The position numbers were made by a program. Below are positions 3,001 through 6,000 of a stretch of 37,493 bases of DNA, in pieces. How positions within the stretch are numbered: the stretch's first letter is position 1; every line of letters begins with the position of its first letter. The DNA is from a virus. Taxonomy: Duplodnaviria; Heunggongvirae; Uroviricota; Caudoviricetes. The DNA is taken from IMG/VR virus record IMGVR_UViG_2585427621_000010; one strand, given 5' to 3'.

Positions 3001-6000
3001 CCCCGGAGAAAGTCGACACACGGCTGTAAGCCACACCCGCCATCGCATACGCGCTGAACCATTCATTCACGCGCACAGACGGCCCCGCCATTACGCTGAA
3101 CCAGCGGTTACGAACGGAATCTTCATGCCAGCGGGTATCGCTGTAACGGGTCAGCTGGCGATTCCTGTCTCCTGCATAGCTGAATGACGTCACCATCCCC
3201 AGTGTGTCCGTAAATTCATAACGGTATTTCACGTTAATCCCGTTAAGATTATCGCTACCGGGAGCGCTCGTCCGGGCATGAAGATACCCCGCGCTCAGCG
3301 TGGCCTGCTGCTCAGACGCCCATGCAGGCGCGCCGGATACGGCCAGACAGATGGCTGCGGACAAAATGGCGGCATAAAGTTTACGCATAATTACCTCTCG
3401 CTTTTCTGCAATAAAAAAGGCGCCATTTCTGGCGCCCGTATATGGGTTATAAAATTCAGCTGATACTGATGCCTGCGGTGGCTTTCTTCATCACCACAAC
3501 CAGCAGATCGCTGATACTGGTTGTTGGTGTCCAGTTATTCGCTCCTGATGAAGATACGGTGAATGTCAGTGTCAGCGTCCCCTGTCCGGCAGGCATATCT
3601 ATAACTGAGGAAAATACGCCCTGAGCATCCGTCGTGGACTGATTAAAAATCTCCTGACCATTGCGGGTCACTCTTAACCGGCAGGTTGAATACCAGTATG
3701 ACTGTTGGTTATTACTGTTGAAATTCTCATGCTTACCACCGCGGAATAACACTGGCGGTATCATGACCTGCCGGTCAAACTTCTGATCATCACTGATTCT
3801 TACCGTGATGGTGCCACTGGCATAAGTGCTCGTGCGGGGGAAAGACTTGCTGACCGTTTTGACAATATCGCCTTCAATCTGGTTGGCTGACAGTTTCCCC
3901 TTAATCTGACAGTTCTCATTAATCGTGACGTTGTTGAGCGTCCCTGAGTTCGCATTCAGCACTGCCCACTGATATCCGCATTTTTCGCCGTCAGTCGCCG
4001 CGTCCGGCGTCAGGGAAAACGTCGGGGGATTGCCGGACGAGGTGATACTCACCGCAAACAGTCGCTTCAGGAACACGTCGTTCATGAACAGCTGATTCCC
4101 CTGCGCCACAAATAACGGCGTGCTGTTGCCGCTCTCCGGATTTATCATCGCGATACGGTCAGCCAGCAGCAGTATGTTGCTCAGTGGCTGGCCATCAGTA
4201 TCCTCAATCCCTGCACCAATCCCGGCCACATAGGGAATGCCGTCTTTCGTTTTTTGAACCTTCAGCATGTACAGCGCAGCCAGGTCATCATTTGTGTCCT
4301 TCTGCACGCGCTGTATCTGCTGTATAGTGGCGCTCTGGTTCTCCAGCGTTTTACTGACCGTCTGTGTGATTTCATTGCGGGTTTCCGTGATGGTGGTCTT
4401 CATCTCCGCCATCTCATCCGCAAGCTGGCTGTTGTCTATCAGCTCCCATAGCCCCTGAGCCAGATGCAGTTTTCCTATTTTTTCCCGGAAAAATTCCAGA
4501 TACCCTTCACCATCATTGCTGGGCTGCCCGCTGACTTCCACAAACGCAGATTTCCCCACCAGGTTGACGCTGCGCACGTAAAACCAGAAATCCGTCCCCG
4601 GCTTAATCCGGCTTCCCTGGACAGTCCACTGACTGCCGCTCCCCAGATAACGGGCAGATTTTTCCACCTGTGCCGTGTTCGTGATGCGTTTTTCCGAAAA
4701 CCAGAACTCAAACTGCACCGTCGGGTCATACACCGCCAGCACCGGTACCGCCGTTATCTGAAAATACCCCGGCGTCAGTTCAATGGTGGCGGGTTTTGCT
4801 GGCGCGTTAATCCGGAAGGTGGTGATGGCCGGTTCCCCCTGCTGGCCATAACTGTTAATTGCCCTGACTGTCAGGGTGTATTCCCCGAGCGGCAGACCAC
4901 TGAAACGATGCTCTGTATCCGCAGTGATGGCGGTGGTCACCAGACGGCTGTCCTGACCGCTTCCACTGGTCAGGCGCAGACTGAAGCGCACGCCCTTCAC
5001 CACCCGCGGCGTGTCCCATTTCGCCTGCGCCAGATACTGGCTGTCAGCTGCACTCACCTCCACCGTCAGGTGCTGCACTGCCGGAGGGATGACGCTGTTC
5101 AGGGTGCCGCTCTGGTCGCCGTCAAAGTGCGCCCCGTTATCCACGATGGCTTCTTTTTCCGGTACGTGCTGCACTGCCGTGATGGCAAAGGTGCCGTCCG
5201 TGTTTTCCCGGATGGAGACACAGCGGAACAGGCGACGACGCAGTGACGGCAGGGAGAGCCCCCACACACCGTATGTCTCCACGCCATCCGGCAGGGTGCT
5301 GACCTGTATCCGGTCCGGCGCGGGGTGTGCAGTGATGGCCACGCTCACCGGCTTACCGCTGCCGTTAATCAGGTTCACCGTGGCGGCACCGGTCTCCGGC
5401 AGGGTCACCTCACGGTCCAGTGTCAGGGTGCGGCTGGCGGCATCGATGGACAGGATACGTCCGCCGGTCATGGTCCCGGCATAGTCGTTATCACAGATTT
5501 CAATAATGTCACCGGGTGTGTGACGCAGCCCCTGTGACCCGAGCGTGAAATCCACCGTCTGCGTTTCCAGCAGTCCGGTCTTTATCACCCACAGCCCGGC
5601 ACGGTGGGCCTGACCGCGACTGGTACAGCCGAACGCATCCATCTTCAGCAGGTTGCGCCCGTAGCGCAGTATGGCTTCCGGGTCTTCCACCAGTTCCGTG
5701 GAGGTCTGCCAGCCGTTCTGCGGGTCGGTGTAATTCACCTCCACCGCCGTGTGGCGGTCCTTCAGGGCGCTGAAGCTGTAGCGAAACCCCACGCCGTTAT
5801 CATCCACCACCACATCACTGCTGGTGTAGGGCCACACCACATCTGACGGACGGTCCTGCACAAACGTCAGCGTCTGCCCGTTCCATACCGGCATACAGCG
5901 CATCGCCGAGCAGAAATCACTGAGAACGTCCCACGCCTTACGCTGTTGTGACAGGTTATCAGCATTGAAGGTCATCCGCGGCTACTGTGCCCCCGAAACC

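Follow-up and report, generated by a model that had tools for sequence, protein, structure and literature searches.

In the window analyzed here, a 37,493-nt stretch deposited as IMG/VR virus record IMGVR_UViG_2585427621_000010, the J host-specificity gene is divided between two overlapping open reading frames. Has J been inactivated in this prophage, or has it been misread in this record? We found that an extra base is present in J, that it is unique to the record, and that the record's private differences carry the signature of sequencing error. Judged from the sequence pattern, the extra T at 5984 is very probably a base-calling or consensus error and not a mutation. We infer that the underlying DNA lacks it, and the J split is, on the comparisons given below, in all likelihood not a real feature.

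The J gene and the base that divides it

On the minus strand of the window, the ORF listing gives one frame of 839 aa, 3456..5975, and a second of 344 aa, 5959..6993, which opens at an upstream TTG. This bears out the overlap at 5959-5975 described in the first-pass annotation. J itself starts at the GTG at 6942, not at the TTG of ORF 5959..6993, and the ATG of the C-terminal frame (5975) is an internal Met of ..TEPRMTFN... Measured in the window, J is 3487 nt long and thus not a multiple of three.

The naming of the gene as J was upheld by Pfam, which placed GpJ domains in both halves: FNIII-A_GpJ in the N-terminal ORF, and Phage-tail_3, Ig_J, Ig_J_second, Phage_Tail_Tip and Ig_GpJ_C in the C-terminal ORF. 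All six GpJ domains scored above the Pfam cut-offs and are spread across both ORFs in the lambda order. The proposed collinearity with lambda J also held, the repaired protein aligning end to end with ~65% of columns identical. According to the annotation of near-identical loci, J sits in the tail gene block with I on one side and lom and the side tail fibre on the other. Domains, lambda collinearity and gene position confirm, at the level of sequence, that the split gene is that of a lambda-type tip attachment protein J.

When aligned with intact J genes, the window shows exactly one surplus base at + strand 5984, the T within ACAGTAGCC on the coding strand. This base is missing in 2009C-4687, TR01, EDL933 and Sakai, as determined by pairwise alignment. 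Its removal produced a single open frame of 3486 nt (1161 codons) reading GFGGTEPRMTFN, in agreement with the earlier claim that there is one base more than an intact T-E-P-R reading needs. Thus, it is the single surplus base at 5984 that splits J into two ORFs. The TAG that the base was said to create is indeed present, in the C-terminal frame and three codons ahead of its ATG; the frame of the N-terminal part, however, runs nine codons past the extra base, to the TGA at 5959-5961. The NADNLS reading, given earlier as genuine C-frame sequence, did not hold up. Its ADN is spurious and arises from further extra bases at 5957, 5959 and 5961, where all relatives and lambda have NAYL. Within window positions 5800-6100, the error-free reading would be GGCACAGAGCCGCGGATGAC(C/T)TTCAATGCGTACCTG, against GGCACAGTAGCCGCGG...GCTGATAACCTG for the reading with the extra bases.

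Table 1. Positions in the window of the J frames, the private insertions within J, and related features.
Feature	Position	Strand	Remarks
Whole J (gpJ, tail tip attachment / host-specificity protein)	3456..6942	-	End-to-end alignment with the 3480-nt gpJ of 2009C-4687, and Pfam
N-terminal J frame	5959..6942	-	327 codons from GTG; ends at TGA 5959-5961
C-terminal J frame	3456..5975	-	839 aa from ATG at 5975
Frameshifting extra base	5984	-	A on + strand; coding-strand T in ACAG-T-AGCC; private to window
Three private extra bases (5957, 5959, 5961)	5957..5961	-	NAYLS to NADNLS; 23-27 nt from 5984
Three private single-base insertions (3959, 3965, 4000)	3959..4000	-	Net +3; 14 conserved residues garbled, frame stays open
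GGG run (coding-strand CCC), intact in window	5829..5831	-	One base lost in Sakai Sp14 and resequenced EDL933 (GGG to GG, + strand)
IS629/IS1203 ORFs	23750-24076 and 24073-24963

Prophage type and closest relatives

Over its whole length, the window is 99.7-99.9% identical to the lambdoid prophage that adjoins espJ in complete O157:H7 genomes. On this similarity, it is an E. coli O157:H7 prophage of the lambdoid Sp14 / CP-933U type that carries tccP/EspFU. The closest genomes are those of the TW14359 / 2009C-4687 / TR01 type, in which a single ORF of 3480 nt encodes gpJ. A comparison with J of related prophages had been proposed in the first-pass annotation; once run, it returned gpJ as one open frame in these closest genomes, with base 5984 absent. 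Over its first 8 kb, the window differs by 93 substitutions, arranged in blocks, from resequenced EDL933 and by 3 from 2009C-4687.

The window begins exactly at the ATG of tccP/espFU (1-1014, +, 337 aa), whose 141-nt proline-rich repeats appear as staggered self-matches. RefSeq starts tccP shorter, at 306 aa in 2009C-4687, and espJ lies just upstream in relatives. This virulence cargo, tccP within the window and espJ beside it in relatives, is independent of J.

Of the major capsid gene, an N-terminal remnant is all that is left (~13476-13739, -), and the same holds in all compared relatives ('incomplete, missing C-terminus'). Because the major capsid gene is only a remnant, the prophage is, by its gene content, head-defective regardless of the state of J.

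Additional observations concern the rest of the window. The length of two C runs, at 19107-19115 and 23576-23583, differs by one from that in 2009C-4687. The run at 19115 is 8 C long in the window, apparently the same as EDL933 to judge from gap counts, and the large terminase ORF (17446-19431) is open. The large terminase is annotated as frameshifted in 2009C-4687, and here the error, or real variation, may lie in that record instead. The lysis genes are separated from the esterase gene by an IS629/IS1203 (IS3 family) copy at ~23750-24965, an insertion that related O157 genomes share. Three phage tRNA genes are found at 27972-28221 (-): Arg-tct, Arg-tcg, and a tRNA with a CAT anticodon which is Met according to ARAGORN and Ile according to RefSeq. 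One window-private substitution, at 27976, falls 5 nt from the 3' end of tRNA-Arg(tct), and a second, at 29018, falls in the Q antiterminator gene.

Private differences in the record and their explanation

The alternative to be weighed most carefully against a sequencing error is a genuine, strain-specific +1 insertion which inactivated J in an already defective prophage, as part of pseudogene decay. We consider this unlikely, although the state of the prophage would allow it. The family has no intact major capsid gene and the prophage is not packaged in Sakai (PMC2669165), and J would be dispensable for that reason. Because the family is already defective, J would not be under selection, and it would be no surprise if a private frameshift in it were real. 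Moreover, a real J frameshift has arisen independently in Sakai/EDL933 and is carried by 246 complete records. If the T is real, a TW14359-like O157:H7 strain would have inactivated its Sp14-type J on its own, at a site other than the Sakai/EDL933 deletion, and this too we regard as improbable.

To our searches, the lesion was visible in this record alone. The T insertion was found in no complete E. coli genome among the 5,426 searched. The flanking 31-mer is shared by 788 complete E. coli records, all of them without the same four bases relative to the window. The 31-mer containing the T had no match in 185,579 species-representative genomes, IMG/VR or the metagenome scan, while the 29-mer without the T occurs in at least 120 IMG/VR contigs. 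J sites from IMG/VR are in frame in 117 of 119 cases, every one of these reading NAYL or NANL, and the NADNLS-coding 27-mer had no match in IMG/VR. Local frameshifts at the other 2 of the 119 sites are consistent with a genuine insertion, and a real strain-specific mutation would likewise be expected to appear as a database singleton. Against a genuine insertion, the lesion is in no other genome, independent assembly or related strain that was searched. Where a J frameshift is real and inherited, as in Sakai/EDL933, its trace is plain in many genomes; the window insertion has left no such trace. No identical copy of the window was found in the 5,426 complete E. coli genomes, INPHARED phages, GTDB species representatives, IMG/VR or JGI metagenomes, and the exact 839-aa product was not found in the gene-position index.

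The base at 5984 is not the only private change in J. All seven private length changes in the gene are single-base insertions, and they form two clusters of 28 and 42 nt; the probability of seven random sites forming two such clusters is ~5e-6. In the first, the insertions at 5957-5961 destroy the NAYL motif, which is conserved as far as lambda J. In the second, the insertions at 3959-4000 replace a conserved 15-residue segment with 16 residues, after which the frame is restored. Conservation of this segment extends from the O157 allele to lambda J, and this cluster is a hidden error that yields a false variant peptide. After removal of all seven bases, the protein matches the gpJ of 2009C-4687 (WP_000514965.1) at 1160/1160 codons, stop included. 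The private differences within J amount to the seven insertions and one synonymous substitution.

A similar pattern runs through the whole record. Compared with 2009C-4687, the window has 53 gap openings and 15 non-N substitutions. As controls, we compared 2009C-4687 with EDL933 over 19.6 kb (118 substitutions, 2 indels), with Sakai over 19.6 kb (168 substitutions, 3 indels) and with TR01 over 8.6 kb (2 substitutions, 0 indels). The indel:substitution ratio of the window differs from that of the EDL933 control at a Fisher p of ~2e-30. Real decay would be mostly by substitution (118:2 and 168:3 in the controls), whereas J has its seven insertions in tight clusters and a single synonymous substitution, which argues against a genuine insertion. 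The window also contains six Ns (9035, 9118, 9197, 9681, 36413 and 36421). In two degraded stretches, 7998-8217 and 9474-9647, ~60 and ~175 bases respectively were dropped and the megablast alignment was lost. These Ns and degraded stretches, together with identical-looking clusters in other genes of the record, likewise speak against a genuine insertion. We favor the error reading because the private differences are dominated by indels, are clustered, are accompanied by Ns and degraded stretches, and occur in no other sequence. The first-pass annotation had left the cause open between an inactivated J and a consensus error; the same private clustered indels, Ns and degraded stretches strongly favor the consensus error and disfavor inactivation.

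The damage extends to other genes of the window. Dozens of private indels and lost bases fill two zones, 7962-8340 and 9416-9681, and are worst within the two degraded stretches. The tail genes K, L and M fall in these zones, as does the tape-measure gene H at its 3' end. Because of the degraded sequence, K, M and H look broken or shortened in the window; they are intact in the closest relatives, e.g. 2009C-4687. The H of Sakai Sp14 is itself split. A further private cluster at 25777-25830 (4 deletions, 1 insertion and 2 substitutions, net -3) garbles ~19 residues but leaves the frame open. It lies inside a 615-aa ORF (25045-26892, -) which in relatives is a SASA-family carbohydrate esterase. 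The error clusters at 3959-4000, 5957-5984 and 7962-8340 are spaced by ~2.0 kb. Speculatively, this spacing might mark read ends from a ~2-kb insert library, or PCR or primer-walk segments.

The explanation that we favor for the split, a sequencing error, runs as follows. The window is a low-quality copy of an Sp14 / CP-933U-type prophage, probably from a Sanger draft of the first generation in which the repeated phage tail genes were covered by single reads. In a poorly resolved stretch, 5957-5984, bases were very probably called that do not exist, and the one at 5984, being uncompensated, broke the frame. In the organism, J is most likely one 1159-aa ORF identical to WP_000514965.1.

Two further explanations appear far less probable than a genuine insertion. 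The 5957-5984 cluster could stem from recombination that brought in part of a divergent J paralogue from another lambdoid prophage, given that as many as 14 copies of J occur in an O157 genome and that the between-strain substitution blocks show mosaicism to be common in the region. However, such a tract would bring substitutions and not single-base insertions alone, and no independent J allele with GCTGATAAC at the position of the cluster was found. We rejected import from a paralogous J, as neither the NADNLS-coding 27-mer nor the T insertion occurs in any allele from complete E. coli genomes or IMG/VR. Equally remote is a programmed +1 ribosomal frameshift that bypasses the extra base, or a J made as two functional polypeptides. 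All that points this way is the length of the two open frames and the ATG at the head of the C-terminal one, but this ATG is just the internal Met of TEPRMTFN. The two-frame arrangement occurs in no relative, J being a single ORF at this site in relatives close and distant, lambda included, and the adjoining residues are garbled by further private insertions. We know of no +1 shift motif in ACA GTA GCC. With conservation absent, both forms of this explanation were rejected.

If the T at 5984 is an error, as we favor, then apparent pseudogenes and variant peptides in the window reflect the quality of the record. Gene calls in the window (J; the tail genes K, M and H; the esterase at 25045-26892) should accordingly be treated with caution and not be taken as biology. 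Were the frameshift real, the host-specificity function would have been lost a second time, in parallel, in an effector-carrying prophage that was defective beforehand. Even then little would follow from it, in a family without an intact major capsid gene whose J has been independently broken in Sakai and EDL933.

Comparison with intact and split J genes

The gpJ of TW14359, 2009C-4687 and TR01 (WP_000514965.1, WP_000514966.1) is the nearest known counterpart of the window J. It belongs to the same prophage, with the same order of tccP, tail fibre, lom, J, I, K, L, M and H. At the DNA level it differs from the window only in the private indels, and the proteins are identical once the seven bases are removed. 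In contrast to the window, with 3487 nt in two ORFs, these genomes have an uninterrupted ORF of 3480 nt.

A split J is also known from Sakai Sp14, where the same gene of the same prophage is present as two overlapping ORFs (ECs_2719 / ECs_2720), and from resequenced EDL933 (PacBio/Illumina), where gpJ (EDL933_RS14640) is flagged 'frameshifted'. The cause there is different: a 1-bp deletion in a C run rather than an insertion at 5984. The deletion maps to window-equivalent position 5829, 155 nt downstream of the 5984 lesion in the same gene; listed counterparts of the 5829-5831 run lie at 6340 in locus L005 and 6314 in locus L006. TW14359-like strains have the run intact. Because the deletion was found independently in two projects, and because the deleted-run version has exact matches in 246 complete E. 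coli records, it is a real inherited mutation. Asadulghani et al. (PMC2669165) scored Sakai Sp14 as defective for head, tail and host specificity and did not find it packaged in Sakai.

The record also resembles the first-generation O157:H7 assemblies. Latif et al. 2014 (PMC4132626) described the 2001 EDL933 record as having its ambiguous calls and unresolved sequence mainly in long phage repeats, and the window shows the same symptoms of ambiguity and error. The substitution pattern of the window, however, fits the TW14359-like lineage better than it fits resequenced EDL933.

Lastly, lambda J (NP_040600.1, central tail fibre / tip attachment protein) is collinear with the repaired J from end to end, with 760 of 1167 columns identical (~65%). 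The lambda protein is encoded by a single ORF, is 1132 aa long, and differs in its divergent receptor-binding C-terminus. At the break point itself, lambda J and the repaired J share the motif GFGGTEPR(M/I)T.NAYL.
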